64,000 bases of DNA from Candidatus Kaiserbacteria bacterium (GCA_016217925.1 JACRFK010000009.1:33191-97190), one strand, 5' to 3'. Shown: positions 26,109-44,830, counted from the stretch's first letter. The notes: generated by a model not told the origin, from the sequence alone. Numbers and translations: made by a program.

Positions 26109-28526
26109 ATGACGTTGACATTAAAGAAAATGTCGGCTGTAATCGCAGTGAGCGCATTTTTGCTCGTTGCAGCAGGCATCGTTATCTTGGGAAACCAGCG
26201 TCCAGCTCATGCAGACCTACCACCGCCGGGCTTCGGAAGCCAGATCGTGTGTAGAGTTTTTACGGCCTTAAATCAGATCGGTCCCCCGATACCCGTTTTT
26301 CCAGGGGATTGCCAAAACCCCCCGGATGCGACCCCACAATGTTCCGATGGTATCGACAACGATAGCGATGGATTGACTGACATCGCTGATCCAGGTTGCC
26401 ACAGCGATGGCAACGCCTCAAACACAGCTTCATACAACGCCGATGACAATGGCGAGTTTAATGTACCCGCCTGTTCCGACACGCTTGATAACGACGGCGA
26501 TGCACTGATAGACACTGAGGACCCAGCGTGCCATACCGACGGAAACGCGAGCAACGCAAGCTCTTACGACCCCGGTGGCACAGACGAATCCGCGTTCGTA
26601 CCGCAATGTAAGGATGGGCTTGATAACGACGACGACGGGTTGACCGACACTGCCGACCCAGGTTGTCATACCGACGGCAACGCGAGCAATTCAAGCTCGT
26701 ATAACGCCGATGATAATGGAGAGGCCAATTTGCCGGCCTGCTCTGATTCTCTCGATAACGATGGCGACGGCTTGATAGACAGCGCCGATCCGGCCTGTCA
26801 CACCGATGGAAACTCGGGCAATCCGGACTCATATAACGCCGGCGGCACGGATGAATCCGCATCTGTCCCTCAATGTGGGGACGGGCTTGATAACGACGGC
26901 GATGGCAAGACCGACACCGCCGACCCAGGCTGCCACTCCGATGGCAACGCAAGTAACGCGGGTTCGTACGACCCAGCCGACACAAGCGAGACTGACTCAG
27001 GTGGCGGCGGGAACGGGGGCGGCGGAGGTGGGGGAGCGACTACCACCACAGGCACCCTAGTCGTCACAAAAGTGTTCAATAGCGGCACCACAACACCGGC
27101 CTTGTTCTCGTTCACGATAAACGGGACTTCTACGACTGCGTTCGGTGCGGGGGGACAAAACATCTTCACTGTCGCCACCGGCACGTATACCGTGCTCGAA
27201 GTAGCCACGAGCACCTATACCGCGAGCCACGATAATTGCGGCGCGGTCACGGTATCAGCTGGCGCGACCACCACCTGTACGATAACGAATACGCTCGTTG
27301 CCACCTCGTCCACCATGGGTACGCTCATCGTCCAAAAAGTATTTGGCAGTGGGACGACGACCCCTACACTCTTCTCACTCCTCATCAACGAGGCGGCAAC
27401 GACCACCTTCGATGCCGACGGGCAAAACGAGTTCCTCGTAGCTACCGGCACGTATACCGTGCGTGAAATGGCGACTTCAACGTATGGCGCCGTATATAGC
27501 AACTGTTCGAACGTATCAGTAAACGCGGGAACGACAACAACGTGCGTTATAACAAACACCTTGGCCGTCGCGACCTTACCTGCGTGCTCCGACGGTGTCG
27601 ATAATGATAGTGACGGCCAAATAGATATGGCAGACTCGGGATGTAATGACCCGTCCGACGATACGGAAACTGCCGCAGCGTCAACGCCGGGCGGAGGCGG
27701 AGGAGGTGGTGGTGGCGGGGGAGGTGGCGGAGGAAGCGGCGGCTCGCTCTTTCCCGTGGCTCCGGTCCTCGGCACAGGGTCTTCGGGGGGCTCTAGCGGG
27801 ACCGTTCTCGGTACTTCGACGACGACCGCACCCGCACCTACTACATCATGTGCGGCCCTCGTCTCCGACTTCATGCGGTTGGGCAAAGATAACGACCCTG
27901 AGCAAGTGCGTCGCCTGCAGCAATTCTTGAACGAGGAAATGGGCTCGAATTTGCCGATAACTGGATTTTTCGGGCCTCTCACGGATGCCGCCGTGCGTGC
28001 ATTCCAGCGCAAATATCAAAGCGACATACTTGAACCATGGGGAATCAGTGGCGACACCGGCTATGTGTATCTCACGACACGCAAGAAAATAAACGAGCTC
28101 TACTGTCGCAATACAATGCAATTTCCTCTTACTACCGCAGAACAACAGCTGATAGAGCAAAGCCGCTCCGGAGCGCAACAAGGATCCGTACCGGCTTCCT
28201 CGCAGGAACCCGGACCGGCTTCTTCCTCGCCACCGCCGACGACAGGTGATGAAGCCACGGCCCAGGACGAAAGCTCTGCTGGACCTGGCACCTCCGTTAC
28301 TGGACAGGTATTCGGCACCTCATCGGCCTCGGACACTCCTTGGGAAACTGTGGGCGCCGGTCCAACGACAGGAAACATAGGCAATTTTCCTGAAGCTTCA
28401 CCTCAAATTATTGCGGCGCTCCTTGTTCTCCTTGCACTTGGCGCTGGGTGGTACTTCTGGTACCGACGGCCCACCATCCCGCCCACCATCCCGCCCACGG
28501 GGAGCTCTAGCGCCGGAAAGGCGTAG
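26109..28526 (+). CDS. Cell-surface protein: six thrombospondin-type-3-like DxDxDGxxDxxDPxC repeats, two prealbumin/Cna-B-like domains, C-terminal PG_binding_1 domain and TM anchor
   Basis: Signal peptide. 6 x ~42-aa repeats (CSDGIDNDSDGLTDIADPGCHSDGNASN...). Poly-Gly linkers. Two copies of GTLVVTKVFNSGTTTP..F.INGTS...GTYTV.E.ATSTY....NC..V.V.AG.TTTC.ITNT. PG_binding_1-like LQQFLNEEMGSNLPITGFFGPLTDAAVRAFQRKYQ. C-terminal TM plus PTIPPTIPPT. Confidence 0.8.
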   Translation: MTLTLKKMSAVIAVSAFLLVAAGIVILGNQRPAHADLPPPGFGSQIVCRVFTALNQIGPPIPVFPGDCQNPPDATPQCSDGIDNDSDGLTDIADPGCHSDGNASNTASYNADDNGEFNVPACSDTLDNDGDALIDTEDPACHTDGNASNASSYDPGGTDESAFVPQCKDGLDNDDDGLTDTADPGCHTDGNASNSSSYNADDNGEANLPACSDSLDNDGDGLIDSADPACHTDGNSGNPDSYNAGGTDESASVPQCGDGLDNDGDGKTDTADPGCHSDGNASNAGSYDPADTSETDSGGGGNGGGGGGGATTTTGTLVVTKVFNSGTTTPALFSFTINGTSTTAFGAGGQNIFTVATGTYTVLEVATSTYTASHDNCGAVTVSAGATTTCTITNTLVATSSTMGTLIVQKVFGSGTTTPTLFSLLINEAATTTFDADGQNEFLVATGTYTVREMATSTYGAVYSNCSNVSVNAGTTTTCVITNTLAVATLPACSDGVDNDSDGQIDMADSGCNDPSDDTETAAASTPGGGGGGGGGGGGGGGSGGSLFPVAPVLGTGSSGGSSGTVLGTSTTTAPAPTTSCAALVSDFMRLGKDNDPEQVRRLQQFLNEEMGSNLPITGFFGPLTDAAVRAFQRKYQSDILEPWGISGDTGYVYLTTRKKINELYCRNTMQFPLTTAEQQLIEQSRSGAQQGSVPASSQEPGPASSSPPPTTGDEATAQDESSAGPGTSVTGQVFGTSSASDTPWETVGAGPTTGNIGNFPEASPQIIAALLVLLALGAGWYFWYRRPTIPPTIPPTGSSSAGKA
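26335..26995 (+). repeat. Six tandem ~126-nt coding repeats (TSP3-like units) inside gene 26109..28526
   Basis: Period ~126 nt recognisable at DNA and protein level (C.D.LDNDGDGL.D.ADP.CH.DGN.SN). Confidence 0.7.
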
Positions 28527-28690
28527 GGATGTAGCGGTTTTCTCCGCTCAAAATCACGCACGTTCGCGTATTGACGTTTACGAGTTCTGTCTTTGGATAC
28601 GCGAAAAGCGTTGACAGGGCAATGGACAAGTATATCTTTGGGGGCGGCGAGTTCTCACTGCTTTATTGTTTCTAATATTCCCAAAGGCTT

Positions 28691-30502
28691 ATGACGTTGA
28701 CATCACGAAGGATGTCGGCGGGGCTCGCGACGCTTTTCGCGATACTCGCGGCCGGCACCCTTCTCTTGGGAAACCAGCGTCTAGCTCATGCAGAAGTACC
28801 TCCGAATCTGGGAAGTCAGATCGTTTGTAGAGTATTTACCGACTTAAACCATATCGGACCGCCAATACCGCTTTTCCCAGGCGATTGTCAAAATCCTCCG
28901 GGCTCCCCCCCGCAGTGTTCCGACGGTATCGACAATGATGCCGACGGACTCGCAGACTATCCGGCGGATACAGGCTGCTCGAGTACGAGCGACAACACCG
29001 AAGCGCCGAATCCGCCTCCGCCGCCCCAATGCTCGAACGGGAGCGACGACGATAATGACAGCTTTACAGACCAAAACGACCCAAATTGCCACACCGATGG
29101 CGACCCGACCAATTCTGCAACGTACAACCCGAATGGCACCGAAGCGGGCAGCCTTCCCGCATGCTGGAATGGCGTAGACGATGATGGCGATGGGCTCAAA
29201 GACTTCCCGGCCGACCCCGGATGCACTTCGGCGCTTGACACCAGTGAATCAAACACGCCGACGCAGGGTCCGGAAAATACCCTTGCATTATGTTCAGACG
29301 GCATTGATAACGACGCCGATAGCAAAGTAGACCTTGCTGATCCGGATTGTGCAGGCTTCCAGGCGAAATTGGTCGTTGTGAAGATAGTTGTGAACGATAA
29401 CGGCGGCACCAGTGTGGCGTCGGACTTTTCTTTGCACATAGCTACAAGCTCTACAGGCTCTGCGGAAGCAATCGGCGTATCATCCGGCGCCACGACGACC
29501 GTGCATACGGGTACATGGACGGTGAGCGAGGTACAAAAATCCGGATATACGGCCACCTTTGGCGGTGATTGCAATACGAGCGGGCAGGTAACACTGGGAG
29601 CTGGGGAAACCAAGACGTGCACTATCACCAATAACGACATCGCGCCGTCCGCTCCGGCGTGTTCCGACGGTATAGACAACGACAACGACGGTAAAATCGA
29701 CAGCGTAGACCCCGGGTGCAGCGATGCAAACGACACGGATGAAGCAAATGCTCCGGAGTCACCCGCGTGCTCCGACGGTCTGGACAACGATGACGACGAC
29801 CTGATAGATAGCGCAGACCCCGGCTGCAACGACAGCAATGATACTGATGAAACGAACACGCCGCCGTCCTCGGGGGGTGGTGGCGCTGGCGGAGGCGGAG
29901 GTGGCGGAGGTGGGATAGGTCCTGACCTCATCTCGCCCGGCGGAGCCATATTCACGGCGGGGCCGACTGCTGCTGTCCTTGGGGTTGCAACGACGACCGC
30001 GCTTTTACCGGCCCTTGTGCTCAAACCAAAGGAATCGTGCGACATGTACGTTACGTCCTTTATAAAAAGCGGTGCAAAGAATGACGCAGATCAAGTACGA
30101 CGTCTCCAGCATGTATTGCGCGAATATGAAGGCGCCAAGATCGAGATACATGGTGTCTATGACGAACCGACTCTCGCGGCAGTGCACACATTCCAGAGCA
30201 AGTATGCCCAAGACGTATTGACCCCTTGGGGAATTACCAAGTCAACGGGCTTCACGTATCTCACGACACGCAAGAAAATAAACGAGGTGTATTGCCGCGG
30301 CACCAAACAATTCCCGCTCACGACCGCCGAGCAGCAGACAATAGTAAAATCACGTTCACCGATACAGCCACTTTCGCCAACTTCAACGAAGATCGCACCG
30401 GCGGCATCTCCTTCCCCACTTCCCGCGGAAGCGGTCCCTGAAACGGCAAAAAGCTTGTGGCAGCGTCTCCTCGACGTGGTAAAAGGAGCACGAGGGCAAT
30501 AG
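28691..30502 (+). CDS. Cell-surface protein, tandem paralog of 26109..28526 (TSP3-like repeats, one Cna-B/prealbumin-like domain, PG_binding_1)
   Basis: First 60 aa nearly identical to the upstream gene (QIVCRVFT.LN.IGPPIP.FPGDCQNPP). DNDxDG repeats. KLVVVKIVVNDNGG..DFSLHI...GTWTVSEVQKSGYTA...C.TITNND. PG_binding_1-like VRRLQHVLREYEGAKIEIHGVYDEPTLAAVHTFQSKY. Confidence 0.8.
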   Translation: MTLTSRRMSAGLATLFAILAAGTLLLGNQRLAHAEVPPNLGSQIVCRVFTDLNHIGPPIPLFPGDCQNPPGSPPQCSDGIDNDADGLADYPADTGCSSTSDNTEAPNPPPPPQCSNGSDDDNDSFTDQNDPNCHTDGDPTNSATYNPNGTEAGSLPACWNGVDDDGDGLKDFPADPGCTSALDTSESNTPTQGPENTLALCSDGIDNDADSKVDLADPDCAGFQAKLVVVKIVVNDNGGTSVASDFSLHIATSSTGSAEAIGVSSGATTTVHTGTWTVSEVQKSGYTATFGGDCNTSGQVTLGAGETKTCTITNNDIAPSAPACSDGIDNDNDGKIDSVDPGCSDANDTDEANAPESPACSDGLDNDDDDLIDSADPGCNDSNDTDETNTPPSSGGGGAGGGGGGGGGIGPDLISPGGAIFTAGPTAAVLGVATTTALLPALVLKPKESCDMYVTSFIKSGAKNDADQVRRLQHVLREYEGAKIEIHGVYDEPTLAAVHTFQSKYAQDVLTPWGITKSTGFTYLTTRKKINEVYCRGTKQFPLTTAEQQTIVKSRSPIQPLSPTSTKIAPAASPSPLPAEAVPETAKSLWQRLLDVVKGARGQ

Positions 30503-30504
30503 AG

Positions 30505-30530
30505 AAAAGCACATAGGTCGGTTCTCTGTG
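30505..30530 (+). repeat. REP-like 26-nt repeat, copy A (variant ...ctctgtg)
   Basis: gaaaagcacataggtcggttctctgtg, 40 nt upstream of the RAYT-like gene. Confidence 0.6.
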
Positions 30531-30543: not shown

Positions 30544-31242
30544 ATGCTGCGAAAAACACCCCTTCTCTCTGGAGAGACCTATCATATCTACAATAGGGGT
30601 GCGCATAAGTACGCGACCTTCACAGACGAGTCAGACTACTGGCGCTTTTCTGCGCTCCTCCATCTCGCAAATCACTCCGGCCCTGTATTGTTGCGTGAGA
30701 TTCTTGAGCGCAAAAAGCACATAGGTCGGTTCTCGGGGGAGATTTTTACTGAACAAACTGACAAGTCTCTTGTTGATTTGCTGGCATATTCACTTATGCC
30801 GAATCATTTCCATTTTGTCATCAGGCAAAAAATGGATAACGGGATCACAAAGTTTATGCAAAAACTGACCGTGTCTTATTCAATGTACTTCAATACCAAG
30901 TATGAGCATAGCGGCGTTCTATTCCAAGGCCGCTTCAAGAGCAGCCACTTAGGTACCGACCCGTACTTCAAATGGATCTTTTCCTATATCCATCTCAATC
31001 CGGTCTCTCTCGTCGAACCACAATGGAAGGAAAAAGGTATTGGCAACCCCGCGCAGTCGAAGGAATTTCTCAGAAACTATCGACACTCAAGCTACTACGA
31101 CTACTACGTGGGGGAGCGACCCGAGCGAGCAATTCTTGCGTACGATGAGGCGGTCGGTCTTCTGGACAAAGAGGCCGATCTTCAAGATATGCTAGCGGCG
31201 TATGTGAATGGCAGAGCTCTCTATTCCAACTCCAACGTATAA
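30544..31242 (+). CDS. tnpA: HuH Y1 transposase, IS200-like / REP-associated tyrosine transposase (RAYT)-like (COG1943)
   Basis: YHIYNRGAHK near the N-terminus. LMPNHFHFVI (HuH). Conserved Y in the C-terminal half. Paralogous to 55009..55704. Confidence 0.75.
   Translation: MLRKTPLLSGETYHIYNRGAHKYATFTDESDYWRFSALLHLANHSGPVLLREILERKKHIGRFSGEIFTEQTDKSLVDLLAYSLMPNHFHFVIRQKMDNGITKFMQKLTVSYSMYFNTKYEHSGVLFQGRFKSSHLGTDPYFKWIFSYIHLNPVSLVEPQWKEKGIGNPAQSKEFLRNYRHSSYYDYYVGERPERAILAYDEAVGLLDKEADLQDMLAAYVNGRALYSNSNV
30713..30738 (+). repeat. REP-like repeat, copy B (in-frame inside the transposase ORF, encodes KKHIGRFSGE)
   Basis: aaaagcacataggtcggttctcgggg. Confidence 0.6.
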
Positions 31243-31576: not shown

Positions 31577-31660
31577 GTCTTAAAGCCAAGATTTCACTAG
31601 GGAGATTGACGGATAGTAATTGATTGTGTCGTATTGCATAAAATAGGCGAAATATCATTG

Positions 31661-31695
31661 ACCTGGCGCGCGATAGATACATAATGGCTGCAACG
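31661..31695 (+). promoter_or_regulatory. Putative sigma70-like promoter in the long intergenic region
   Basis: TTGACC - 16 nt - CATAAT. Followed by ~130 nt of hairpin-rich sequence ending in ggttcgcttttttatttt (31815-31835). Confidence 0.3.
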
Positions 31696-32052
31696 TTGCG
31701 TGTGTGCCCCGCATTCAGAGGGGCAGACGCGACGAGGGGAACCAGCGACATAGTATGGTCGCTGTAGGAAACAATCGTAAAGGACAGAATCTAAAGAGGC
31801 GGAGCACTCAGCTTATGGGTGGTTCGCTTTTTTATTTTGCTATCGGACAGGCTGAGGTGGAGAGCACAGCACGCTGCGCTTAAGAGACAAGCGCGTCGTG
31901 CCGTGAACTCCACGTTTCCGAGTCCGCCTCGGCGGAGGAGGAGAAGGGAAGTTCACATAAGGGTCGATAACCTATCGTCGCGTGCGCAAATTTATTAGCA
32001 AGCGAGACGGTGGATTTACCAGATTCATTAAAAAAAATCAAAACAAAACATT

Positions 32053-32769
32053 ATGCAAAACACATACGGAAAGGCAGCGGCTATCGCAACGTCGGTAGCT
32101 ATGGCTTTGGGAACATTCGGATTCGCAGCTCCTGCGTTCGCAGCTGTGAACTCTTCGAGCATCACGATCTCGATAACGAACCGTGGCTCGATCGACAACA
32201 CGACACAGGCTGATGCGCACACGGGCCAGAACATTGCGCTCGGAAGCCAGGGTGGCTTGGGCGGCAACGGCGGCTCAGTTACCTCGGCTGGCAGTGAGAA
32301 CAACGGCGGTGCGACAGCCGGCAACGGCGGCAACGGCGGCAATGGTGGAGCTGGTGGCCTCGTGACTACGGGTAACGCTTCGGCGGACGCTGGCACGCAG
32401 AACGGCCTCAACGGCACCGACGCAACAATTGAATTCGATTGCGCATGTGGTGACCTCAACAGTGTTACTGTTGGCGTAACAATCGACAACGACCGCGAGT
32501 TCCCAACCCAGAACAACATCGACAACACGACACAGGCACGTGCTCGCTCAGGGCAAAATCTTGCCGATGGCAGCACAGGTGGCGATGCAGGAACGGGTGG
32601 TGACGTGACCGGTGGCTCGGGCAGCGAGAACAACGGTGGCGCAACGAGCGGCAACGGCGGCAACGGCGGCTCGGGCGGTCTCGGCGGCGAAATCGCCACG
32701 GGCAGCGCAACCAGCAAGTCTGGTTCTGTCAACATGTTGAACACAACGATCCTTCGCGTTCGCATGTAA
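32053..32769 (+). CDS. Secreted Gly/Asn-rich repeat protein (238 aa), internal duplication
   Basis: Signal peptide (AFAAV). Two copies of ITNRGSIDNTTQA.A.TGQN.A.GS.GG..G...VT.G.ENNGGAT.GNGGNGG.GG.GG. C-terminal TGSATSKSGSVNMLNTTILRVRM. Confidence 0.65.
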   Translation: MQNTYGKAAAIATSVAMALGTFGFAAPAFAAVNSSSITISITNRGSIDNTTQADAHTGQNIALGSQGGLGGNGGSVTSAGSENNGGATAGNGGNGGNGGAGGLVTTGNASADAGTQNGLNGTDATIEFDCACGDLNSVTVGVTIDNDREFPTQNNIDNTTQARARSGQNLADGSTGGDAGTGGDVTGGSGSENNGGATSGNGGNGGSGGLGGEIATGSATSKSGSVNMLNTTILRVRM

Positions 32770-32916: not shown

Positions 32917-33474
32917 ATGACAAAAACACACGGTAGAACAATGACTCTCTTCGCCGCATGCGGGCTCATTCTCGCGGGGATGTTCTTCTTGATGCCGCGC
33001 GGAGCGGACGCAGCGCAGACCACCTCCCGACTCGGCGGAGGCAATGCGCTTCTGCGGGCAACGGTTGGTCTGTTGCACGCGAGCTCCACAAGCGACATCC
33101 TCGCGCACCTCACTTTTGCGAGTACGCGTGGTGTCCCCGGTACCACATCCTCGCAAAGCTCGGATGGCTACGGGGCAGGCGAGAATGATACGGCGAACGA
33201 TACGGGAGGCAGCACTGCCGGTGGTGTCGACGGCTCGCAGGGAAACTCGGGTGAACCAGCCCCACAAGGGAACGCAAACGACAACGGCGGCAACCCCATT
33301 GGAAACTCTGCGAGTTCCAACGGGGCAGGCGGCGGCGCTACTGCCGGTAACGGAGGAGATGGCGGCAACGGAGGAGGTGCAGCGGCAGGAGGATTGGTGC
33401 GAGCAGGGAACGTCGTCTCGAACGCGAATGCGTCAAATGCGATAAACGTGACCACTGTTCGTATCAGCCGATAA
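32917..33474 (+). CDS. Secreted Gly/Asn-rich protein (185 aa), paralog of 32053..32769
   Basis: Signal peptide. G/N-rich. C-terminal LVRAGNVVSNANASNAINVTTVRISR matches the C-terminus of the upstream gene. Confidence 0.6.
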   Translation: MTKTHGRTMTLFAACGLILAGMFFLMPRGADAAQTTSRLGGGNALLRATVGLLHASSTSDILAHLTFASTRGVPGTTSSQSSDGYGAGENDTANDTGGSTAGGVDGSQGNSGEPAPQGNANDNGGNPIGNSASSNGAGGGATAGNGGDGGNGGGAAAGGLVRAGNVVSNANASNAINVTTVRISR

Positions 33475-33682: not shown

Positions 33683-34123
33683 ATGACAAAAACAACACAA
33701 AAAGCACATAGGTCGGTTCTCGGGGGAATGGCGGCACTTATCTTTCTCGCGGTGTTTTTAATTGCTTTTAATGCGTATGCAGATGGGGGCGCCGCGCGGG
33801 ACCGCGGGACATCCGGCCGCACCACTACTCCTACTCCACCACCACCTCCACCACCGAGCCCTGCACCGGTGCCGGTGCCGCCATCCTCAAATCCGTCCGG
33901 CGGTATTACGAACGTAACGACTGGAGAGGTTGATTCGGGCGGCAATACCGGCGGCAATGTTACGACAGGAGACGAGAGCGTGGAGATAACGGTCGTAAAT
34001 ATCGGGCCGACGAATAGTTCCCAATCGGTAATTATCCCGGGCCCGACTCCACCTCCCACGCCGGAGTGTGACTCGCGTACTCGGACAGGATGCGAGACGC
34101 AGGGTCCAGACCGCACACGTTAG
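33683..34123 (+). CDS. Secreted Pro/Gly-rich protein, same family (true start probably Met at 33728)
   Basis: After copy E of the REP-like repeat comes MAALIFLAVFLIAFNAYA (signal peptide), then PPPPPPPSP and ITNVTTGEVDSGGNTGGNVTTGDESVEITVVNIGPTN. Overlaps the next gene by ~50 nt if the track end is used. Confidence 0.5.
   Translation: MTKTTQKAHRSVLGGMAALIFLAVFLIAFNAYADGGAARDRGTSGRTTTPTPPPPPPPSPAPVPVPPSSNPSGGITNVTTGEVDSGGNTGGNVTTGDESVEITVVNIGPTNSSQSVIIPGPTPPPTPECDSRTRTGCETQGPDRTR
33700..33725 (+). repeat. REP-like repeat, copy E
   Basis: aaaagcacataggtcggttctcgggg just upstream of the signal-peptide start. Confidence 0.65.
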
Positions 34124-36160: not shown

Positions 36161-36565
36161 ATGAACACATCAGTAACTCAGAAAACGTATGTAGTGGCCC
36201 TCGTGATACTTCTGGCAGTCCTTGCCTACATCGCGCTTGCGCCGACTGCGGACGCAAGCACACAAGTAGGGGGGAGATCAGACCGCACGCGCGAAGTAGG
36301 AGCCCCGTTGCCCGGAGGCACGGGCGGCACCGGAGGTTCGCAGGGCGGGACATCGGGAGAAAGCGGACAGTCCGGAGATTCGTCAACCAACGAAACATTG
36401 GACCAGGAGGCAGCACAGGCGCTCATCGATGAGATAGTAGACAACGTGCCAAACGAAAGCGACTTCCCGAGCCAAAGTGACATCGATGAAGCGACCGACC
36501 CGCCCACGATTCCCGGCTTTCTCGCCCTCTTCAATACGTTCCTCACACGCTTCCGGGATAGATAG
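36161..36565 (+). CDS. Small secreted acidic protein
   Basis: TM/signal segment VVALVILLAVLAYIALAP. Gly/Ser-rich. Acidic C-terminal half. Confidence 0.5.
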   Translation: MNTSVTQKTYVVALVILLAVLAYIALAPTADASTQVGGRSDRTREVGAPLPGGTGGTGGSQGGTSGESGQSGDSSTNETLDQEAAQALIDEIVDNVPNESDFPSQSDIDEATDPPTIPGFLALFNTFLTRFRDR

Positions 36566-39700: not shown

Positions 39701-40381
39701 TCGTGGGACCTCGAGACGATAGTCCCCGGCGATGAGATAACGCTCACGTACACCGTTGAATACGCCACGAGTACTGCTCCGGGTAAGTATCACAACGTAG
39801 CGCGAGTGACCGCGAAGCGCAATTCGTCTATTGCCACAGCGCCCGATATAACGCCCGTTGAGGCGTCCCGAGATGTTGAATTTGGCTCCAACGGTCTTGT
39901 ACTTGGGGTTTCTACATCGAGCCCGAAGTTTGCGAGCTCGACCATCACCGTCGCGCCCACCTCCTGCGTCCCGCTCCTCACGACCTTTATGAAACAGGGG
40001 CAAGCGAACGTACCATCCGAGGTCGTAAAACTGCAGACATTTCTCAATACGGAAGGCGCACGGCTTCCGACGACCGGATTCTTCGGGTCCATGACGACGG
40101 CAGCCGTCAAGAACTTTCAGCTCAAATATAAGAGTGAGGTCCTGACACCGCTCGGACTTACGAGACCCACCGGCAATGTGTACGGCTCGACCCAAAGAAA
40201 GATAAACCAACTGAACTGTGGCGGGACAACGACCTATATGGAGAACGCACCTGCGGTATCTGCATCTGCGGTGAAGCCGGCGTCGAAGAAAGCTGCGGCC
40301 CCCGCGAAAGCTCCCGCGGCACCGAAGTCGTCCGGATTGCTCAACGCCGTCGGCTCGCTGTTCTCGAAGAAGTGGTGGTAA
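36704..40381 (+). CDS. Giant cell-surface protein (1225 aa): HYR-like domain, TSTPDIIA short repeats, TG(N/D)A..V.N.VNTN repeats, two DUF11-like domains, C-terminal PG_binding_1 and Lys/Ala-rich tail
   Basis: Signal/TM segment. HYR-like PPTIEPHANVNAEATSEAGAVVSYTSPATTDDVDGAGVASCSPPSGSTFPVGNTVVTCTATDVAGNTATMSFYIKV. Repeats IYTGNAVSSARVLNVVNTNFFNS / RTGDAYASAAVLNLVNTNFINS / ATGDAYATANVVNMVNTNVVNR. DUF11-like VTYHLTVANNGSVDADNVVL. Poly-Gly then Pro-rich stretch. PG_binding_1-like VVKLQTFLNTEGARLPTTGFFGSMTTAAVKNFQLKY. Confidence 0.8.
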   Translation: MIKVLSISESRIMAVFLAIAIIYTPIAPAVLYAQVATTTETTTETRAERDRNADTAPPTIEPHANVNAEATSEAGAVVSYTSPATTDDVDGAGVASCSPPSGSTFPVGNTVVTCTATDVAGNTATMSFYIKVAALPPPDTATTTPDVATSTPDIIATSTPDIIATSTPDVATSTPETTPPDDPSAASTASANSAEIPPDQSGTDNTDFQNIINGGSATTTDDTLPIINASATSTEALALDPKLSVATSTDGTGSKFGGTIFTGSAVASTTVNNTLNITRSNVDGPGVTNSSHITADTDNTGTVTTADDTRAFTGDNNGFGGEGNATIYTGNAVSSARVLNVVNTNFFNSTGLVLFLNPQNGDGLDLRTANLSYLIAGGVGASPTNLGCTILTCLNSATLQILNKNVGTINNNVLVRASTGGNAATSTKEGGIDIRTGDAYASAAVLNLVNTNFINSKYFVATFDNFGSMQGDVVLPDAGFFRTFFKNGNTLPDLNSSSYIVSNDNEETFVGTTTANALTGGNIATTTSPGDGHGEIKTGQAYTSSTSYTAANQTHVGGSSALFVFHVSGAWNGTVKGLPEGMSWRRTDYGIEVYSSGNNLSTSTQGIYNSATFIASSTNRATVRTDVNVWAETGENRAQTENGTSTIATGDAYATANVVNMVNTNVVNRNFMFAVFNISGDWNGDIDFGGHSPNMKVTTTVDAPNPTAPNSDVTYHLTVANNGSVDADNVVLSAAYNKSLLFISRSNGLSSDTSTGTKWDLGRIPAGGTREIIATARVSAPGLSAGFSMTLPLTATVSSSLRDQDDADNTQSVSVVVSLPESGSTGGDTTNTDTRDRGDRTDTGSTPPPPPPSGGGGGGGGGGGGGGGGSTPPPSGGGGTPPPAGSGTTTPPPGTTTTPPPASNNGTSPSTNSGSSGGGGSTPASTNNGVFVGNNAIATTWEPNPEITVVKTSSIVKTTAPATVDYKVIVRNSKNAGAAFRGLLTDILYNPKGAVMSNRSWDLETIVPGDEITLTYTVEYATSTAPGKYHNVARVTAKRNSSIATAPDITPVEASRDVEFGSNGLVLGVSTSSPKFASSTITVAPTSCVPLLTTFMKQGQANVPSEVVKLQTFLNTEGARLPTTGFFGSMTTAAVKNFQLKYKSEVLTPLGLTRPTGNVYGSTQRKINQLNCGGTTTYMENAPAVSASAVKPASKKAAAPAKAPAAPKSSGLLNAVGSLFSKKWW
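37129..37240 (+). repeat. Short tandem coding repeats (21-24 nt x ~5) encoding TPD(V/I)(A/I)ATS
   Basis: actcccgatgtcgccacaagc / acgcccgacattattgcaacgagt / actcccgacattattgccacaagc / actcccgatgtcgcgaccagc. Confidence 0.65.
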
Positions 40382-40392
40382 GTTCATTCGTT

Positions 40393-40842
40393 ATGAGGAA
40401 CATGCTCCGTAAAATCACAGCGATTTCTCTATTTGTACCGCTGTTTGCGTACGCGGAAGTGCTTCAGAGTACGAGCGTATCCTCATCGTACAGCGGAGGC
40501 GTAGTCGTTGCCGCCGAGGCGACGTCGACCGGGGAGTCAAGCGCGTCTGCAGATATCAGGGCGACTGTGAGGAGCGGGAAGGGCGGCGTGTGGGTAGAGA
40601 TAACGACAGAGAAAGACGGTGTACGGCGGACAGAGGTCCGACAAGGGGACGTGTCACCGGAACGATCTGTCACTGTTTCTATCGCGACGAGTAGCGGAGC
40701 CGGGGTTCCTGCCGGAGAAGCGCGCGCCACGAGGGGAGGGAATGCTACGACAAGCGCTCAGCGCGCTTCCGGGGCTCTACGTATTTGGAGCGAGAATCTT
40801 CGAGCTCTCCTGAGGAACTTTTTCCGTCAATTCTCCCGCTAA
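40393..40842 (+). CDS. Small secreted hypothetical protein
   Basis: Start set at MRNMLRKITAISLFVPLFAYA (signal peptide). Ser/Thr/Gly-rich. Confidence 0.5.
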   Translation: MRNMLRKITAISLFVPLFAYAEVLQSTSVSSSYSGGVVVAAEATSTGESSASADIRATVRSGKGGVWVEITTEKDGVRRTEVRQGDVSPERSVTVSIATSSGAGVPAGEARATRGGNATTSAQRASGALRIWSENLRALLRNFFRQFSR

Positions 40843-40964: not shown

Positions 40965-42290
40965 ATGAGTATACGGAGATTTATGTCTTCGGTGTTGCTT
41001 TTGGCTGTCTGTACGGCGTTCACTTTTTTTGCTTTTGTCAATGCGGATGTGCGCGAAGACCGACCCGTGCGGGATGAGGTGGTCGCAGGTCAATACATCG
41101 TCGTTCTCAAAGACTCGGTCGTGGATATCGATACGGCGGAAAATGACATAGTCAAGAATTCCCGTAGTGAGCGATTTAATTCCTACAGAAATACGATCCA
41201 CGGATTCGCCGCTCGCATTCCCGATGCAGAACTCGACGCGGTGAAGAACGACCCGCGTGTCGAATTCGTGAGCGAGGACCGAGTGGTTTCTACTACCGAT
41301 GCCCGCAGCGCGGGAGCGCGTGAGCGCGGTGTAACAGAGCTCGCCAAAAACGGCACTCTCTTTGCCCAGGCGCAGTCACTGCCCACAGGCATCGATCGCA
41401 TCAATGCGGAGAACAAAACCAACAAAGGAGCCGGCGTGCAGGTCGCGGTCATCGACACCGGCATTTACGTAAACCATCCGGACCTCAAGGCAAACGTGCT
41501 CGGCGGCAAAAATTGCATATCGTCGAATAAATCGGCATACATTGACCAGAACGGACACGGCACGCACGTCGCGGGCACTATCGCTGCCCTGGATAACGGT
41601 CAGGGAGTTGTCGGCGTTGCGCCTGCGGCGAAGCTCTGGGCTATACGCGTACTCGACAGAAATGGCAACGGCACGTGGTCGTCGGTCATATGCGGCCTAG
41701 ACGCCGTTGCCGCGAGCGGCCCGAAATACGGCGGCAGTATCACCGTTGCGAACATGAGCCTCGGCGGAAGCGGCACATCCGACAACAACTGCGGCAATAC
41801 CAATAACGACGCCCTGCACAAGGCAGTCTGCCGCGTACGTGATGCGGGCATCACGCTCGTCGTCGCCGCAGGCAACAGTGGCGCTAATGCCGCAAACTTC
41901 GTACCGGCGGCCTACGACGACGCCGTCATCACGGTCTCCGCACTTGCGGACTCGAATGGAACTTCGGGTGGAGGGGGAGCGCCTACTTCCTACGGTGCCG
42001 ACGACACATTCGCATCGTTCAGCAACTGGGGTACGCCGGTAGATATCGGCGCACCGGGCGTCAATATTTATTCAACGTGGCTTTCGAATGGCTACAAAAC
42101 TATTAGCGGCACGAGCATGGCCTCTCCACACGTGGCAGGTGCGGCGGCTCTCTACGTCGCAACGCACCCGGGCGCCTTGTGGACCGACGTGCGCAATGCC
42201 TTGGTCGCCGCGGGGGAAGCCGTCGGGGCAGGGCACACCGACCCTTCAGGAAAACATCCGGAGCTTGTCTTGCGCGCCGATACGCTATAA
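40965..42290 (+). CDS. Subtilisin-like serine protease (S8) with I9 inhibitor propeptide
   Basis: Signal peptide. Propeptide (YIVVLKD...HGFAARI). Catalytic D (VAVIDTGI), H (HGTHVAGTIAA), S (GTSMASPHVAGAAAL). Confidence 0.85.
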   Translation: MSIRRFMSSVLLLAVCTAFTFFAFVNADVREDRPVRDEVVAGQYIVVLKDSVVDIDTAENDIVKNSRSERFNSYRNTIHGFAARIPDAELDAVKNDPRVEFVSEDRVVSTTDARSAGARERGVTELAKNGTLFAQAQSLPTGIDRINAENKTNKGAGVQVAVIDTGIYVNHPDLKANVLGGKNCISSNKSAYIDQNGHGTHVAGTIAALDNGQGVVGVAPAAKLWAIRVLDRNGNGTWSSVICGLDAVAASGPKYGGSITVANMSLGGSGTSDNNCGNTNNDALHKAVCRVRDAGITLVVAAGNSGANAANFVPAAYDDAVITVSALADSNGTSGGGGAPTSYGADDTFASFSNWGTPVDIGAPGVNIYSTWLSNGYKTISGTSMASPHVAGAAALYVATHPGALWTDVRNALVAAGEAVGAGHTDPSGKHPELVLRADTL

Positions 42291-42334
42291 AAAAACGAGT
42301 TTTGAGTTTGGCGGGGACATGAGAAAATGCACGT

Positions 42335-43336
42335 GTGCGTAACAACACACCAAAGCGCTTGAGCCGTACCCCTTCGGTCATGCCGAAACGGCAGCTGTGG
42401 CTCCTCGAGGGGGCAACATTAGCCGCTTCGGTCGCGCTCATACTCTCTCTTTTTTGCGTATCTGCGATACAAACATTCATCGTCCGTTCGGGGCAAGGAG
42501 CGGCGGTCGTCTCTGCGGTATTGGTCGATCTCGCGAACAGTGACCGCGCATCGAACATGGTGGGGGGCCTCACCGTAAATCCCGTGCTTACCGCTGCGGC
42601 GCAGGCAAAAGCCGACGATATGGCGGCGAAGGGATACTTCGCCCACGTCTCTCCAGACGGTCGCGATTCGTGGTACTGGTTTAAGCAGGCCGGATACTCA
42701 TTCAGCTATGCGGGAGAAAATCTCGCCGTCGACTTCTCCGATTCCGCGGATGTCGAGCGGGCGTGGATGAATTCGCCCACGCACCACGACAATCTGCTCG
42801 ACCCGCATTTTACCGAGATCGGTATCGCGCTTGCGTGGGGGACATTTGAGGGCCACGCGACGACGTTCGTGGTGCAGATGTTCGGTACTCCCGCGGAGAC
42901 TGCAGAGGTCGCCTCTATTCAGGAGGTTGCAACACCGCTCGATGCCACAGAAACCGCTGTCGCAACGACGCAACCCGCGGGGGCGAACGTCTTGGGTGCA
43001 AGCGTGGATGAGGGAGCGCAAGCCGGCGCACTGACCGCCGACATCAGTACGACCGCGGCTCCGCCCATAGGTGCCGTTACACGATACGCTCCTCCATGGG
43101 GCCTCATGGCGACGTCGCCAAAGACGATGCTACGCTACGCGTTTTACGCCATCGGATTCCTCGTGCTTTTGGCGCTGCTCCTTACAACAGGCCTGGAGTT
43201 GCGATGGCATCATCGAAGAGCCTTTGTTACTGCCGCGTGTTTGCTGGTCTTCATGTCCGCAGTTTTCGTCGTTGCGGATTACGCGGTGTTCACCGAACCG
43301 GTATTGGCCGATACTTTGCCGGGACTTGATCAATAG
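42335..43336 (+). CDS. CAP/SCP/PR-1-like domain protein (YkwD-like), membrane-anchored
   Basis: N-terminal TM. CAP core AAQAKADDMAAKGYFAHVSPDGRDSWYWFKQAGYSFSYAGENLA...HHDNLLDPHFTEIGIAL. C-terminal TM. Start could be the Met at 42380. Confidence 0.7.
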   Translation: MRNNTPKRLSRTPSVMPKRQLWLLEGATLAASVALILSLFCVSAIQTFIVRSGQGAAVVSAVLVDLANSDRASNMVGGLTVNPVLTAAAQAKADDMAAKGYFAHVSPDGRDSWYWFKQAGYSFSYAGENLAVDFSDSADVERAWMNSPTHHDNLLDPHFTEIGIALAWGTFEGHATTFVVQMFGTPAETAEVASIQEVATPLDATETAVATTQPAGANVLGASVDEGAQAGALTADISTTAAPPIGAVTRYAPPWGLMATSPKTMLRYAFYAIGFLVLLALLLTTGLELRWHHRRAFVTAACLLVFMSAVFVVADYAVFTEPVLADTLPGLDQ

Positions 43337-43424
43337 ATTTGTAACGCAGGATATACACATGCACCCCTCGCGCGGGTGTGCCGCGGGTCTACAATTCACA
43401 AATTATCTTTAAAACGGATATATT

Positions 43425-44069: not shown

Positions 44070-44113
44070 TTCTCGCTGTAATCGAATGGGCCGCGTTCTC
44101 CACCAAGGCTTGT

Positions 44114-44830
44114 TTGCAGGGTGTGAGTTCCGTCCTACTATACAGGTATATGCGCAGCATACTCACGTTAGGAGCCGCCGCGCTCATCGTCGCTCTTATT
44201 ATTGTGAATGGTCCGGCCCTTTCCCATTCCCGGCTCGTCCTAAATCCGGCTGCTCAAGCGGGCGCGGCGGTCTTCATATACGACGAGGACGGGTACCCGG
44301 TTATTTTCGATGAAGTGTATCCGGATTATGTCGTAAACGATCAGCCGGGTATGTTCTACACGCCTTGGGATGACTACGACTACTACTACGATTACTACAA
44401 CTACGGAACCGGCTACGGCCCGTACGACTATTCTTCAGGCGACGTTACCTATTACGATACATGGGATACGTACTACTACGAGCCGCCTCCGCCGCCTCCG
44501 CCGAGCCCCTGGTACGTGCAGGCGCTTCCGGGTGTCGGCAGCATTGCGCAACCTATCGTGCAGGGCATTGCTCCGCAGACGAAAGTATCGCCGCGTCCCA
44601 CGTGTTCCATCTCCTCAAGCTCGTCTACCGTCGCATCCGGCGGCTCTGTGATACTTCGCTGGACATCCCAAGGAGCGGAATGGAGCGACCTCACCGAGCT
44701 CGGTATCGTGAGCGCGAGCGGTTCATGGCAATTCGACAGTATGACACGCAGCAGAACGTTCGTCCTCAACCTTTCGGGTCCGGGTGGCACCGGCAGCTGC
44801 TCCACGGTCGTTACCGTCCTGCCGCGTTGA
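44114..44830 (+). CDS. Secreted Tyr/Asp-rich hypothetical protein
   Basis: Signal peptide. YDYYYDYYNYGTGYGPYDY low-complexity region. PPPPPPPSP. C-terminal beta-rich domain. Confidence 0.5.
   Translation: MQGVSSVLLYRYMRSILTLGAAALIVALIIVNGPALSHSRLVLNPAAQAGAAVFIYDEDGYPVIFDEVYPDYVVNDQPGMFYTPWDDYDYYYDYYNYGTGYGPYDYSSGDVTYYDTWDTYYYEPPPPPPPSPWYVQALPGVGSIAQPIVQGIAPQTKVSPRPTCSISSSSSTVASGGSVILRWTSQGAEWSDLTELGIVSASGSWQFDSMTRSRTFVLNLSGPGGTGSCSTVVTVLPR

Follow-up and report, generated by a model that had tools for sequence, protein, structure and literature searches.

The genes at positions 26109-44830 of the window (the whole 64,000-nucleotide stretch that was analysed) probably form a chromosomal surface cluster, conserved in Kaiserbacteria and with a core kept across Parcubacteria, that would build a wall-anchored surface fibre or coat. 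The source is a MAG of Candidatus Kaiserbacteria, in which g4 is 100% identical to Kaiserbacteria HY971_04505; this identity and the lineage place it in the CPR, as expected from the small-genome bacterium proposed in an earlier note on this DNA. Parcubacteria are tiny, probably host-dependent bacteria.

All ORFs of the locus lie on the plus strand in an unbroken run of 14 (Table 1). The co-orientation described in the earlier note was thus found again, but not its count of eleven genes: the ORFs of 134 and 156 aa (g8 and g10) had been passed over and the transposase was left uncounted. The long minus-strand ORFs that cross Gly-rich sequence (e.g. 28957-30045) resemble antisense artefacts. An N-terminal hydrophobic signal or anchor segment, called by a Kyte-Doolittle heuristic plus AxA-type sites and not by SignalP, was detected in 13 of the 14 ORFs, so that the signal peptide or TM anchor formerly ascribed to every gene holds, by this heuristic, for all except the Y1 transposase-like g3. 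Domain HMM searches recovered HYR, DUF11/CLIPPER, PG_binding_1, SpaA_2, Peptidase_S8 with Inhibitor_I9, CAP and Collagen, whereas TSP_3 was not recovered and HemolysinCabind remained below its cut-off. PG_binding_1 is C-terminal in g1, g2 and g9, which agrees with the coordinated, secreted, wall-associated surface set suggested earlier. The 'three unrelated giants' do have this domain in common, but two of them, g1 and g2, are paralogues, for whose 805 and 603 aa the label is rather strong.

Table 1. Features of the locus and its upstream flank, in window coordinates.
Feature	Position	Strand	Evidence
DsbB-like gene, upstream flank	24107-24649	+	Pfam DsbB 6.8e-11
349-aa polytopic membrane protein, upstream flank	24644-25693	-	synteny
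g1, 805 aa	26109..28526	+	Pfam, NCBIfam, TM-segment, repeat evidence
g2, 603 aa, tandem paralogue of g1	28691..30502	+	Pfam, NCBIfam, identity to g1
First AAGCACATAGGTCGGTTCTC copy	30507..30526	+	exact 20-mer
Other AAGCACATAGGTCGGTTCTC copies	30715, 31245, 31553, 33702, 40852, 40882	+	exact 20-mer
g3, 232 aa, Y1 (HUH) transposase-like, RAYT-like	30544..31242	+	Pfam Y1_Tnp 4.2e-12
g4 leader, 5' half	31658..31840	+	alignments, folding
g4 leader, 3' half	31854..31976	+	covariation, controls, model matches
g4, 238 aa, secreted Gly/Asn/Thr-rich	32053..32769	+	hhalign, synteny
g5, 185 aa, secreted Gly/Asn-rich	32917..33474	+	position-matched homologues
g6, 146 aa, secreted Pro/Thr-rich	33683..34123	+	position-matched homologues
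g7, 653 aa from ATG	34170..36131	+	Pfam, NCBIfam, 653-aa gene call
g8, 134 aa, small secreted	36161..36565	+	homologues in L005, L015 only
g9, 1225 aa	36704..40381	+	Pfam domains, repeats
g10, 156 aa, small secreted Ser/Thr-rich	40372..40842	+	iterated family next to g9
g11, 441 aa, secreted subtilisin	40965..42290	+	Peptidase_S8 142.8 bits, Inhibitor_I9 propeptide 36.3 bits
g12, 333 aa, CAP/SCP domain protein	42335..43336	+	CAP 53.5 bits
g13, 214 aa	43425..44069	+	Collagen match
g14, 238 aa	44114..44830	+	N-terminal anchor, Tyr/Asp-rich region

The N-terminal part of g9 consists of a signal peptide, an HYR domain (aa 54-132; 47.5 bits in Pfam) and a Thr-rich linker, and is followed by a central domain of ~470 aa (aa ~225-700) with four to five TG.N.A...TG.A.A.A.V.N.VNTN units. 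Next are a DUF11/CLIPPER domain (695-815; 54.8 bits), a Gly/Pro linker and a second DUF11-like domain that is weak (20 bits); PG_binding_1 (1105-1143; 24.8 bits), a Lys/Ala/Pro tail and the tag ...GSLFSKKWW complete the protein. The HYR, DUF11 and PG_binding_1 domains previously read in g9 were all recovered, the second DUF11-like domain only weakly. Modelling gives the central domain a β-solenoid-like fold, to which no solved structure is closely related, and the HYR is a putative distal binding domain. As the signal peptide has a plausible cleavage site, the C-terminus is the sole visible anchor of g9. CLIPPER/DUF11 is known as the isopeptide-bonded stalk domain of fibrillar adhesins (PMC12617251).

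Three small secreted proteins share the repeats of g9. Two copies of N.G.I.N.T.A.A.TG.N.A.G...(Gly-rich loop)...V.TG.A.A.A...N..N.T, with a C-x-C spacer between them, make up g4, which matches aa 288-457 of g9, covering two repeats of its central domain, with an hhalign probability of 98.5% (E 2.9e-15). The repeat motifs are invariant across the g4 and g9 families and, judged from these alignments, g4 is a stand-alone paralogue of two g9 repeats. No Pfam domain was found in g4, whose family comprises 1453 representatives, the named ones all labelled 'hypothetical protein'; the AF2 model of the monomer was poor (pLDDT 59.6) and uninformative either way on co-assembly. A single ...GGLVRAGNVVSNANASNAINVTTVRISR unit of this repeat type closes g5 (start probably at 32941; called by Logan as 177 aa), whose iterated profile merges into the g4/g9 repeat family. 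The protein g6, which probably starts near 33728, just past a copy of the 20-mer described below, has a single short TG..TG..VVN unit and, at its C-terminus, a pair of Cys residues. Homologues of g5 and g6 occupy the same place in 14 and 16 loci, respectively.

A different feature, an aromatic C-terminal tag, is common to g8 (...GFLALFNTFLTRFRDR), g9 and g10 (...IWSENLRALLRNFFRQFSR) and to their homologues, being amphipathic in g8 and g10. F/W residues abound at the C-termini of the g10 family, where their number over the final 14 positions has a mode of 5, compared with 0 for the window ORFs, and the iterated family directly adjoins g9 in 44 of 76 loci; the start of g10 itself is probably a few codons inside the ORF. 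From its distribution (Table 1), g8 appears lineage-restricted.

In g1, a signal/anchor, a conserved N-terminal Cys box and six acidic double-disulfide repeats precede two weak SpaA-like domains (SpaA_2/SpaA), a Gly-rich linker, PG_binding_1 (31.6 bits), a low-complexity tail and a TM segment (aa 760-778), an order that would place the PG-binding domain beside the cell's own membrane. Its paralogue g2, with identity blocks of 52% and 41%, has six such repeats, a SpaA_2 domain (37 bits) and a PG_binding_1-like domain that is sub-threshold (18.3 bits against a cut-off of 23) and ~55% identical to that of g1. The repeat unit, C-x-D-G-x-D-N-D-x-D-G-x-x-D-x-x-D-P-x-C, belongs to NF033662 (g1, E 2.8e-50, 167.7 bits; g2, E 4.9e-39, 131.7 bits; cut-off 41). 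The six repeats per protein reported before were confirmed, but not their thrombospondin type 3 family: the likeness is compositional only, and Pfam TSP_3 had no match in the locus even at E<=10. NF033662 covers the repeat alone, so the combination with SpaA-like and PG_binding_1 domains, and the placement in this cluster, fall outside its definition. Both proteins are taken as wall-tethered, acidic, disulfide-rich and probably Ca-binding.

The ORF of g7 opens at 34068 and its ATG lies at 34170, giving 653 aa and not the 687 of the earlier note. A signal peptide, an unassigned N-terminal region and SpaA_2 prealbumin-like domain(s) (89.5 bits) are followed by C-terminal nonapeptide repeats, for which the RTX-like beta-roll reading was upheld by a clean 9-residue xGxGxDxUx register of ~16 units and a partial NCBIfam Ca-repeat match (1.8e-9), but not by HemolysinCabind (20.8 bits, cut-off 23). 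Type I-secreted RTX proteins likewise have such a predicted Ca-binding beta-roll, but g7 has an N-terminal Sec-type signal instead and, in contrast to type I systems, no ABC transporter or membrane-fusion gene was found in the locus. At the 3' end, the subtilisin with I9 propeptide, the CAP protein and the collagen GXY protein were all as previously described. Close homologues of g11 lie 3' of g9 in 11 loci, with a second S8 type in 7 more, and homologues of g12, which has one N-terminal and two C-terminal TM segments, are near g9 in 19. A signal/anchor, 18 collagen GXY triplets and a C-terminal domain form g13, with longer homologues after the CAP gene in L006, L007 and L012, and g14 is variable, with no homologue among the fetched loci. 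The poorly conserved outer genes g8, g13 and g14 may be unrelated passengers.

The distribution of the module was followed in loci fetched by similarity to g9; the co-occurrence figures are therefore conditional on the presence of g9 and give no estimate of the share of Parcubacteria without the module. The family comprises 77 distinct genome loci, with titles from Kaiser-, Adler-, Taylor-, Nomura-, Giovannoni-, Zambryski- and Shapirobacteria, Minisyncoccia, Paceibacterota and others. In Kaiserbacteria relatives the order g1/g2-(Y1)-g4-g5-g6-g7-g8-g9-g10...S8-CAP-collagen is repeated, with g7 syntenic but shifting in position among genomes. Across Parcubacteria, 62 of 65 loci have a g4-family ORF at most 4.5 kb upstream of g9, and the adjacency and order of g4, g9 and g10 hold down to ~30% identity; by this conservation, the core is a three-gene module, g4, g9 and g10, across Parcubacteria (Paceibacteria). 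The patchy outer genes, with a moving g7, patchy g8, g13 and g14 and optional S8 and CAP, would fit a set of physically independent secreted proteins that are neighbours only through common export, disulfide formation or regulation. Such a reading is improbable, as it leaves aside the kept adjacency of the core, the homology of g4-g6 to the g9 repeats, the tag common to g8, g9 and g10 and a leader RNA dedicated to this operon only.

The locus is flanked by housekeeping genes. The DsbB-like and membrane-protein genes, together with HisRS, are also upstream of the module in L026 and L033, and this flank is syntenic with it in genomes where g9 is only ~45% identical. This flank is conserved context and only possibly belongs to the system; a disulfide-forming enzyme beside Cys-rich secreted repeat proteins is a suggestive functional tie only.

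The exact 20-mer AAGCACATAGGTCGGTTCTC has seven copies, all on the plus strand and within the locus, against 0.01 expected, and none elsewhere in the 64-kb window; the first has the hairpin form AGCACA...TGTGCT, and most lack the hairpin 3' half. These copies and g3 bear out the REP-like repeats and Y1 transposase seen before. As in REP/RAYT systems, a Y1/HUH transposase-like gene is flanked by short, dispersed, partly hairpin-forming repeats, but REP_Tyr_transpos (NCBIfam) scored 36.9 bits where 80 are required, the copies on either side are in direct and not inverted orientation, and one copy lies inside the coding sequence of g3.

These elements were the basis for calling the locus accessory DNA, and a horizontally acquired adhesion island would also account for the GC dip to 0.50 at 30-32 kb, for the lack of g14 homologues in the fetched loci and for the few of g8. 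Nevertheless, in one related metagenome the 20-mer, along with a variant that has a hairpin and T-run, was spread over several contigs; this small repeat is dispersed in the lineage and therefore no island marker. The Y1 gene itself is syntenic, with an orthologue between g2 and g4 in L010 (437 bits) and homologues nearby in other relatives. The rest of the locus has a GC of 0.56-0.59, at the upper end of the window range (0.51-0.59), and neither an integrase nor a flanking tRNA was found, the nearest tRNA in the window being at 18219. With the gene order held in Kaiserbacteria, the core pair across Parcubacteria and the flank accompanying the module in distant genomes, the island reading is refuted and hardly credible; the cluster is a conserved surface-protein gene cluster, not mobile DNA.

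A long leader precedes g4. In its 5' half lie a promoter-like TTGACC-N16-CATAAT at 31658-31685, the conserved box ACGTTGCG at 31693 and an invariant GGGGAACCAGCG at 31736-31747; a hairpin comes after this last motif, and another, terminator-like and with a U-run, is at about 31798-31840. In alignments read by eye, the stems vary in sequence among loci, with the hairpin-then-T-run kept. The 3' half forms adjacent 10-bp and 7-bp hairpins, followed by an invariant GGUCGAU ~75 nt 5' of the g4 start codon. There, 90% of cells were paired, compared with 29-47% in slid controls, two-sided changes occurred in 185 cells (22-55 in controls), and none of 500 shuffles reached the observed covariation score. 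The leader model gave 39 plus-strand matches, one per locus, and every one checked was just 5' of a g4 homologue; Rfam had no relevant match, at gathering score or up to E=10. The leader thus appears to be a previously undescribed conserved structured RNA with strong covariation in 39 loci, its 3' half being a candidate new cis-acting element. It would set the expression of g4 and the downstream genes, and the terminator-like hairpin in a long structured leader points to control by attenuation or to a 5' structure that stabilises the mRNA.

In the arrangement that we propose, g9 would be exported by Sec and held at its own cell wall by PG_binding_1, the Lys/Pro/Ala spacer and the short aromatic tag, projecting outward first the isopeptide-type CLIPPER domain, then the beta-solenoid-like repeats and finally the distal HYR. 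As free secreted copies of one or two solenoid units, g4, g5 and g6 may join the g9 solenoid or lengthen it through stacked beta-strands, similar to the templating of CsgA by the cell-bound CsgB in curli, to give the wall-anchored fibre or coat; homology and adjacency suggest this co-assembly. Kaiserbacteria would add g1 and g2, the SpaA/RTX-type g7, the CAP-domain membrane protein, the collagen-like protein and the subtilisin g11, a possible processing or maturation protease for the others. Counting against this reading are the single confident CLIPPER of g9 plus a weak one, unlike the long tandem stalk of fibrillar adhesins, the HYR domain without an established ligand, and a PG_binding_1 that could in principle bind the wall of a bacterial host.

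No described secretion or adhesion system with this gene set was found in the literature searched, as already claimed. Fibrillar adhesins with CLIPPER/SpaA-type stalks (PMC12617251) are likewise large Sec-exported surface proteins with a distal HYR and a wall anchor at the opposite end, and share CnaA/CnaB-type stalk domains, here DUF11/CLIPPER in g9 and SpaA_2 in g2 and g7. They differ in their long tandem CLIPPER arrays and their LPXTG/sortase or OmpA anchoring, whereas g9 is mostly an unclassified beta-solenoid-like repeat domain, carries PG_binding_1 with a novel aromatic tag and has small, separate paralogues of its repeats alongside. Sortase-assembled SpaA pili also have the prealbumin-like domains seen in g2, g7 and, weakly, g1, but only 6 loci, of which 4 are distinct (L003, L025, L071, L077), have a sortase gene near the module; the window locus has none, and no protein there has an LPXTG-type sorting signal. 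Curli are nucleator-templated beta-solenoid fibres, but the locus proteins have no sequence homology to CsgA/CsgB, the CsgG/E/F secretion channel is absent (the organism is presumed monoderm), and the units here are ~100 aa with long strands and spacers, their polymerisation being only proposed.

The same proteins could form an S-layer-like coat, with g9 and g4-g6 as a regular outer layer for protection and shape and not for host recognition. S-layer genes typically have long structured mRNA-stabilising 5' leaders, and the g4 leader is a long one that folds strongly (z = -6.3 over its entire length); the wall anchor is non-covalent, and many species-level Parcubacteria genomes have the module, as a rule in a single copy per fetched locus. 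This purely structural role is rather unlikely, as SLH, CWB2 or other known S-layer anchors are absent and the distal HYR and CLIPPER are adhesin features (PMC12617251). Coat and adhesin roles are also mutually compatible, and the evidence here does not separate one from the other; attachment is one putative role.

Attack or feeding on a host wall would have PG_binding_1 bind bacterial host peptidoglycan and the large proteins act in targeting, with S8 and CAP degrading or remodelling the host surface. PG_binding_1 is common in cell-wall hydrolases, its sole match in a PDB sequence search was the Zn D-Ala-D-Ala carboxypeptidase 1lbu, and the module repeatedly has a CAP gene and one for a secreted S8 protease nearby. 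On the other hand, no recognisable catalytic domain was found in g1, g2 or g9, the S8 and CAP genes occur in only ~1/4 of loci, and the PG-binding domain of g1, adjoining the C-terminal TM anchor, would therefore be turned to the wall of its own cell. Cultured Paceibacteria that have such proteins are parasites of archaea, whose walls are not known to contain peptidoglycan. Although Kuroda et al. read secreted PGBD proteins as involved in host attachment, an attack on host walls is very improbable here.

The wall-anchored fibre or coat remains our preferred reading. In cultured Paceibacteria parasitising methanogens, genes for secreted peptidoglycan-binding proteins rank among those with the highest expression (PMC10936435), which we take as a lead only. 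The wall-tethered fibre-like protein, its small secreted repeat copies and the leader RNA are candidates for surface building or attachment in Parcubacteria.

All substantial ORFs of the locus at 26109-44830, antisense artefacts aside, were found on the plus strand (n = 14; designated g1 to g14 in order in the table). An N-terminal hydrophobic segment of the signal-peptide or membrane-anchor type, called heuristically and not with SignalP, was detected in 13 of them, the exception being g3, and several carry AxA-type cleavage sites, as in g4, between PAFAA and VNS. C-terminal TM segments were seen in g1 (one) and g12 (two). The earlier note's description of co-oriented secreted or surface genes was thus borne out, but with 14 genes instead of eleven and with some domain names changed. 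Long ORFs on the minus strand opposite Gly/Asn-rich coding regions, with Pro-rich or Arg-rich mirror sequences, are most likely artefacts of repeat composition.

Coordinates of the features described (positions in the window unless a locus is named)
Feature	Position	Strand	Remark
g1	26109-28526	+	805 aa
g2	28691-30502	+	603 aa
g3	30544-31242	+	232 aa
g4	32053-32769	+	238 aa
g5	32917-33474	+	
g6	33683-34123	+	
g7	34170-36131	+	ORF opening at 34068
g8	36161-36565	+	
g9	36704-40381	+	1225 aa
g10	40372-40842	+	
g11	40965-42290	+	
g12	42335-43336	+	
g13	43425-44069	+	
g14	44114-44830	+	
Minus-strand mirror ORFs	27215-28012, 28957-30045, 32028-32765, 39410-40387	-	
ORF of 1009 aa	378-3407	+	
Conserved upstream flank	21169-25693; L026 1-2856; L033 680-2632		
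20-mer copies	30507, 30715, 31245, 31553, 33702, 40852, 40882	+	
Whole leader	31658-32052	+	g4 start at 32053
Leader element 1, promoter-like	31658-31685	+	TTGAC-N(16-17)-ATAAT
Leader element 2, box			ACGTTGCG, 3' of the promoter-like site
Leader element 3, invariant sequence			GGGAAACCAGCG, followed by a hairpin
Leader element 4, terminator-like	~31798-31840		hairpin and U-run; stem sequence varies among loci
Leader element 5, R1 match	31854-31976		two adjacent hairpins, then invariant GGUCGAU
Tag-bearing 3' ends	g8 36520-36565; g9 40330-40381; g10 40790-40842		
T2SSE, T2SSF, N_methyl pilin or sortase near the module	L001 17542-23747; L003 3511-4098		

Pfam searches recovered the HYR, SpaA_2, Peptidase_S8 with Inhibitor_I9, CAP, Collagen and Y1 assignments: SpaA_2 in g2 and g7, Y1_Tnp in g3, the protease and its inhibitor domain in g11, CAP in g12 and Collagen in g13. 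In g9, an N-terminal HYR domain (47.5 bits), a DUF11/CLIPPER domain (54.8 bits) and a C-terminal PG_binding_1 domain (24.8 bits) were identified; PG_binding_1 was also found in g1, and the match in g2 is below cut-off, the same region being ~55% identical to that of g1. Of the DUF11-like domains proposed for g9, one was confirmed, but the second is weak (20 bits, under cut-off), and there is no long tandem array. The repeats of g1 and g2, previously likened to thrombospondin type 3, are real (six C...C units of 20-21 residues in each) but belong to another family: they match NCBIfam NF033662, the acidic double-disulfide repeat, in six stretches each, with 167.7 bits for g1 and 131.7 for g2 (curated cut-off 41; E 2.8e-50 and 4.9e-39), and Pfam TSP_3 was absent from the isolated repeat region even at E<=10. 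The RTX-like repeats of g7 hold a clean nonapeptide register (9 residues, ~16 units, at the C-terminus) and a partial match to an NCBIfam Ca-repeat model (1.8e-9), but their HemolysinCabind score of 20.8 bits falls just below the cut-off of 23. For g4, g5, g6, g8, g10 and g14, no Pfam or NCBIfam family was matched above its curated cut-off, the lone match listed being that of g10 to a fimbrial-protein model (17.4 bits, cut-off 213).

Elsewhere in the window, a Pro/Ala/Glu-rich ORF of 1009 aa without a Pfam match, with a TM-like segment, a Thr/Pro-rich C-terminal part and an internal duplication (LKPGAENPSGKVWND...GQRLNPET is present twice), may encode a further envelope protein. A likeness of its C-terminus to that of g14 was discarded, BLASTP having returned nothing. 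The remaining genes of the window encode housekeeping functions (HisRS, LepA, MurJ, ribonucleotide reductase, SHMT, GPI, ROK, dCTP deaminase, GTP cyclohydrolase), and the presence of MurJ indicates a peptidoglycan wall.

The distribution of the locus was followed in other genomes. The g4 product is 100% identical to HY971_04505, encoded on a 110,073-bp contig from a Candidatus Kaiserbacteria bacterium (Parcubacteria group, Patescibacteria). Full-length relatives of g9 number hundreds, those with a named source being Kaiserbacteria, Parcubacteria, Paceibacterota or Minisyncoccia, and a scan in which each species was represented by a single genome yielded 77 distinct loci, with Kaiser-, Adler-, Taylor-, Nomura-, Giovannoni-, Zambryski- and Shapirobacteria among their titles. 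When every ORF of the fetched loci was compared with the window genes, the same order was met repeatedly in related Kaiserbacteria: g1 g2 g4 g5 g6 g7 g8 g9 in locus L015, g2 g4 g5 g6 g7 g9 in L008, g2 g3 g4 g6 g7 g9 in L010, g4 g5 g6 g7 g9 g10 ... g11 g12 g13 in L012, g7 g9 ... g11 g12 g13 in L006, and g5 g6 g7 g8 g9 in L005, whose g9 is 90% identical. Even the Y1 gene is present between g2 and g4 in L010 (437 bits). Among the 65 loci with sufficient sequence upstream of g9, an ORF of the g4 family precedes the g9 homologue on the same strand within 4.5 kb in 62 and within 1.5 kb in 53, and an ORF of the g10 family adjoins g9 in 44 of 76 loci, just downstream or, in more distant genomes, just upstream.

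The upstream flank is conserved as well. HisRS, a DsbB-like gene and a gene for a polytopic membrane protein of 349 aa, the latter with no Pfam match, precede the module in L026, and the last two also in L033, in both of which g9 is only ~45% identical to that of the window. The DsbB-like protein may serve the Cys-rich secreted repeat proteins. A Pfam domain scan detected no integrase, no tRNA lies within 7 kb of the locus, and its GC content (0.56-0.59, against 0.51-0.59 for the window) breaks only at an AT-richer spacer at 30-32 kb. The earlier note had taken the locus for an accessory island. Because gene order recurs, the flank is co-conserved and neither tRNA, integrase nor compositional break marks a border, that part of its interpretation is refuted: the gene set is syntenic in Kaiserbacteria relatives and its core extends across Parcubacteria. 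The other part, a coordinated wall-tethered surface system, was retained.

Two copies of the g4-g9 module, ~15 kb apart, were found in one genome (L024 and L026, both on contig CAZWFX010000002.1), one of them with a g7-like gene between g4 and g9; therefore, the module is capable of duplication. Type IV pilus genes and sortase genes were each detected within 10 kb of the module in only 6 fetched loci (4 distinct), and neither was kept as a component, the association not being general. In L001 and L003, T2SSE, T2SSF, N_methyl pilin or sortase genes lie a few kb from the module.

An exact 20-mer, AAGCACATAGGTCGGTTCTC, occurs in seven copies, all on the plus strand and all inside the locus, where 0.01 would be expected. 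Copies are located directly past the stops of g2, g3 and g10 (a tandem pair after g10), in the g3-g4 spacer, shortly ahead of the probable g6 start and within g3, and the peptide encoded by this intragenic copy is kept in the L010 orthologue. In one related metagenome the 20-mer is scattered across several contigs (L084-L092), often as a hairpin with a T-run (AAGCACA-N13-TGTGCTTTT); one window copy also has a hairpin form. Rather than marking a border, the element belongs to this lineage as a small, dispersed repeat, and its candidate roles are those of a terminator, a REP-like element or a binding site. A REP/RAYT system requires inverted palindromic REPs, whereas here the seven copies all lie on the same strand, and g3 resembles REP-associated tyrosine transposases (NF047646) at 36.9 bits, under the curated cut-off of 80.

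The core module consists of g4, g9 and g10. The homologues of g9 share an invariant central region of 4-5 units, A.TG.N.A-(8-10)-I.TG.A.A.A.V.N.VNTN, each followed by a spacer. Those of g4, typically of 210-300 aa, contain a pair of these units, into which Gly-rich loops are inserted, together with a C-x-C spacer; a single unit closes g5, and likewise g6. In a profile-profile alignment, the g4 family was matched to g9 residues 288-457, which comprise two consecutive units with the Cys spacer (probability 98.5%, E 2.9e-15). Searched against 1.84 billion cluster representatives, a g4-family profile matched 1453 of them at E<=1e-3. The central domain of g9 (aa 225-700) was modelled as all-beta (pLDDT 77, pTM 0.74), and Foldseek returned no significant PDB match for it; the AF2 model of the g4 monomer, from a 39-sequence alignment, was poor (pLDDT 59.6) and unusable for a fold search. 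The only PDB match of the g9-family profile was the PG_binding_1 domain of 1lbu (E 0.01).

Three proteins of the locus have short aromatic amphipathic endings, ...GFLALFNTFLTRFRDR in g8, ...GSLFSKKWW in g9 and ...LRNFFRQFSR in g10. Similar endings (...GSFFSKFRP, ...GTFFKLW, ...FFSFFRLF, ...SFFSWFGR) are present on many g9 and most g10 homologues (P0001-P0043 and many of the retrieved loci), and the most frequent F/W count over the last 14 residues is 5 in the g10 family compared to 0 in the window ORFs of 100 aa or more (n = 172). This tag, which may represent a novel signal for anchoring or sorting, was matched by none of the sorting-signal models of NCBIfam.

Upstream of g4, a long non-coding gap of about 650-900 nt was found in all relatives examined, and its last ~480 nt could be aligned in six Kaiserbacteria-type loci, revealing a leader with five elements (see table) and, in the window, a folding z of -6.3. 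The two 3' hairpins, strongly supported by covariation, form 17 base pairs, with compensatory changes in 10/10 in the first helix; 89.9% of cells are paired, compared to 31-42% with the partners slid, 92 double-sided changes were counted against 11-26 in the slid controls, and none of 500 shuffles attained the covariation score of the real alignment. A covariance model of these hairpins (R1), built from 23 sequences, gave 39 plus-strand matches in 1.43 Mb, one per locus and 16 of them outside the seed. Every match checked sits just upstream of a g4 homologue, and that in the window is the only one there. In the enlarged alignment, 90.5% of cells are paired, with 185 double-sided changes compared to 22-55 in controls. 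Searches of Rfam 15 (4227 covariance models) produced no leader match at gathering score and, up to E=10, only two at chance level, mir-K12-10 and ctRNA; no description of the motif was found in the literature.

The 5' half of the leader aligns too poorly with MAFFT for a covariation count, and the hairpin and the terminator there were recognized by inspection. As an ORF of 42 codons from a conserved leader ATG stops after a few codons in the L001 frame, by reading of the alignment, it was rejected as unconserved; therefore, the ATG was counted as part of the RNA. A GUGGAG/CUCCAC pairing around the first 3' hairpin, seen in the window MFE fold, was not kept in other sequences, and a candidate long-range pairing of 4 bp proposed by RNAalifold, CGAC/GUCG, involves invariant bases. 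The position of the terminator-like hairpin between the promoter-like site and g4 suggests control by attenuation. Alternatively, the 5' part would be a small RNA in its own right, and the g4 mRNA would begin with the 3' hairpins, which would stabilise it.

The domain order also bears on anchoring. In g1, PG_binding_1 is followed by ~100 low-complexity residues and a TM segment; therefore, this domain adjoins the membrane of the cell itself. The signal peptide of g9 looks cleavable, and its visible anchors are then only C-terminal: PG_binding_1, a Lys/Pro/Ala spacer and the tag. This arrangement argues by inference that g9 is tethered to the cell's own wall, which would leave the HYR domain distal.

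The locus was compared with known systems. From its sequence, g9 appears to share the end-to-end plan of fibrillar adhesins, with a C-terminal surface anchor and an N-terminal putative binding domain (HYR). Their stalk consists of tandem Ig-like or isopeptide domains; g9 has one DUF11/CLIPPER domain and a weak one, and g2 and g7 have SpaA_2. CLIPPER, the current Pfam name of DUF11, denotes a CnaA-like domain with an isopeptide bond that builds the stalks of fibrillar adhesins (PMC12617251). The locus differs from sortase-dependent surface proteins in having neither an LPXTG-like sorting signal nor a sortase, and from type I-secreted RTX proteins in that g7 carries an N-terminal signal peptide instead and no transporter genes are present in the locus. 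The S-layer anchors SLH and CWB2 were not found in the locus with Pfam or NCBIfam. In Paceibacteria that parasitise methanogens, genes for secreted proteins carrying peptidoglycan-binding domains are reported to rank with the most strongly expressed (PMC10936435), which fits the picture of a wall-tethered surface; the corresponding gene in the supplement of Kuroda et al. is listed with 2079 nt (~690 aa) and no sequence (PMC10936435), and no sequence link to g9 was made. Neither the gene cluster nor NF033662 was found described in the literature.

Together, these data support a chromosomal surface-protein cluster conserved among Kaiserbacteria, with an ancient core of leader RNA, g4, g9 and g10. 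It is a variant of wall-anchored fibrillar surface systems that includes a candidate C-terminal tag and in which both the repeat family and the RNA motif are undescribed. In the mechanism proposed as the most economical, g9 would be a wall-tethered stalk with a beta-solenoid-like body, on which the free repeat paralogues g4-g6 would dock or which they would lengthen, in a manner likened to the CsgB-templated assembly of CsgA; the locus itself lies outside the curli family, as judged by CsgA/CsgB repeat homology and CsgE/F/G export machinery. The paralogues g1 and g2, g7, the subtilisin, the CAP protein and the collagen-like protein would be lineage-specific additions. The resulting structure may be an adhesin, a coat or both.

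A bolder proposal, which we consider rather unlikely, is that g4-g9-g10 make up the main fibre or coat on the parcubacterial surface, a new wall-anchored beta-solenoid polymer with a steering tag and a new class of leader RNA. Peptidoglycan-tethered g9 would then serve as the template on which g4-g6, the free paralogues of its repeats, stack; the previously unrecognised aromatic C-terminal tag would direct placement, and the new structured leader would govern production, either as an attenuator resembling a riboswitch or as a 5' element with a stabilising effect.

Parcubacteria/Paceibacteria are among the largest bacterial radiations, and those members that have been cultured live attached to other microorganisms. 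To our knowledge, almost nothing is known of their surface make-up and of their means of holding a host beyond type IV pili. The locus is no strain-specific curiosity, as its module of three protein genes and an RNA element is present in dozens of species-level genomes, and it contributes several undescribed elements: a repeat family (~1450 cluster representatives), a C-terminal tag that is a candidate for sorting or anchoring, and an RNA motif outside Rfam with support from covariation. If the fibre or coat proposal is true and the structure mediates host contact, this very large uncultivated lineage would gain its first defined attachment structure other than pili.
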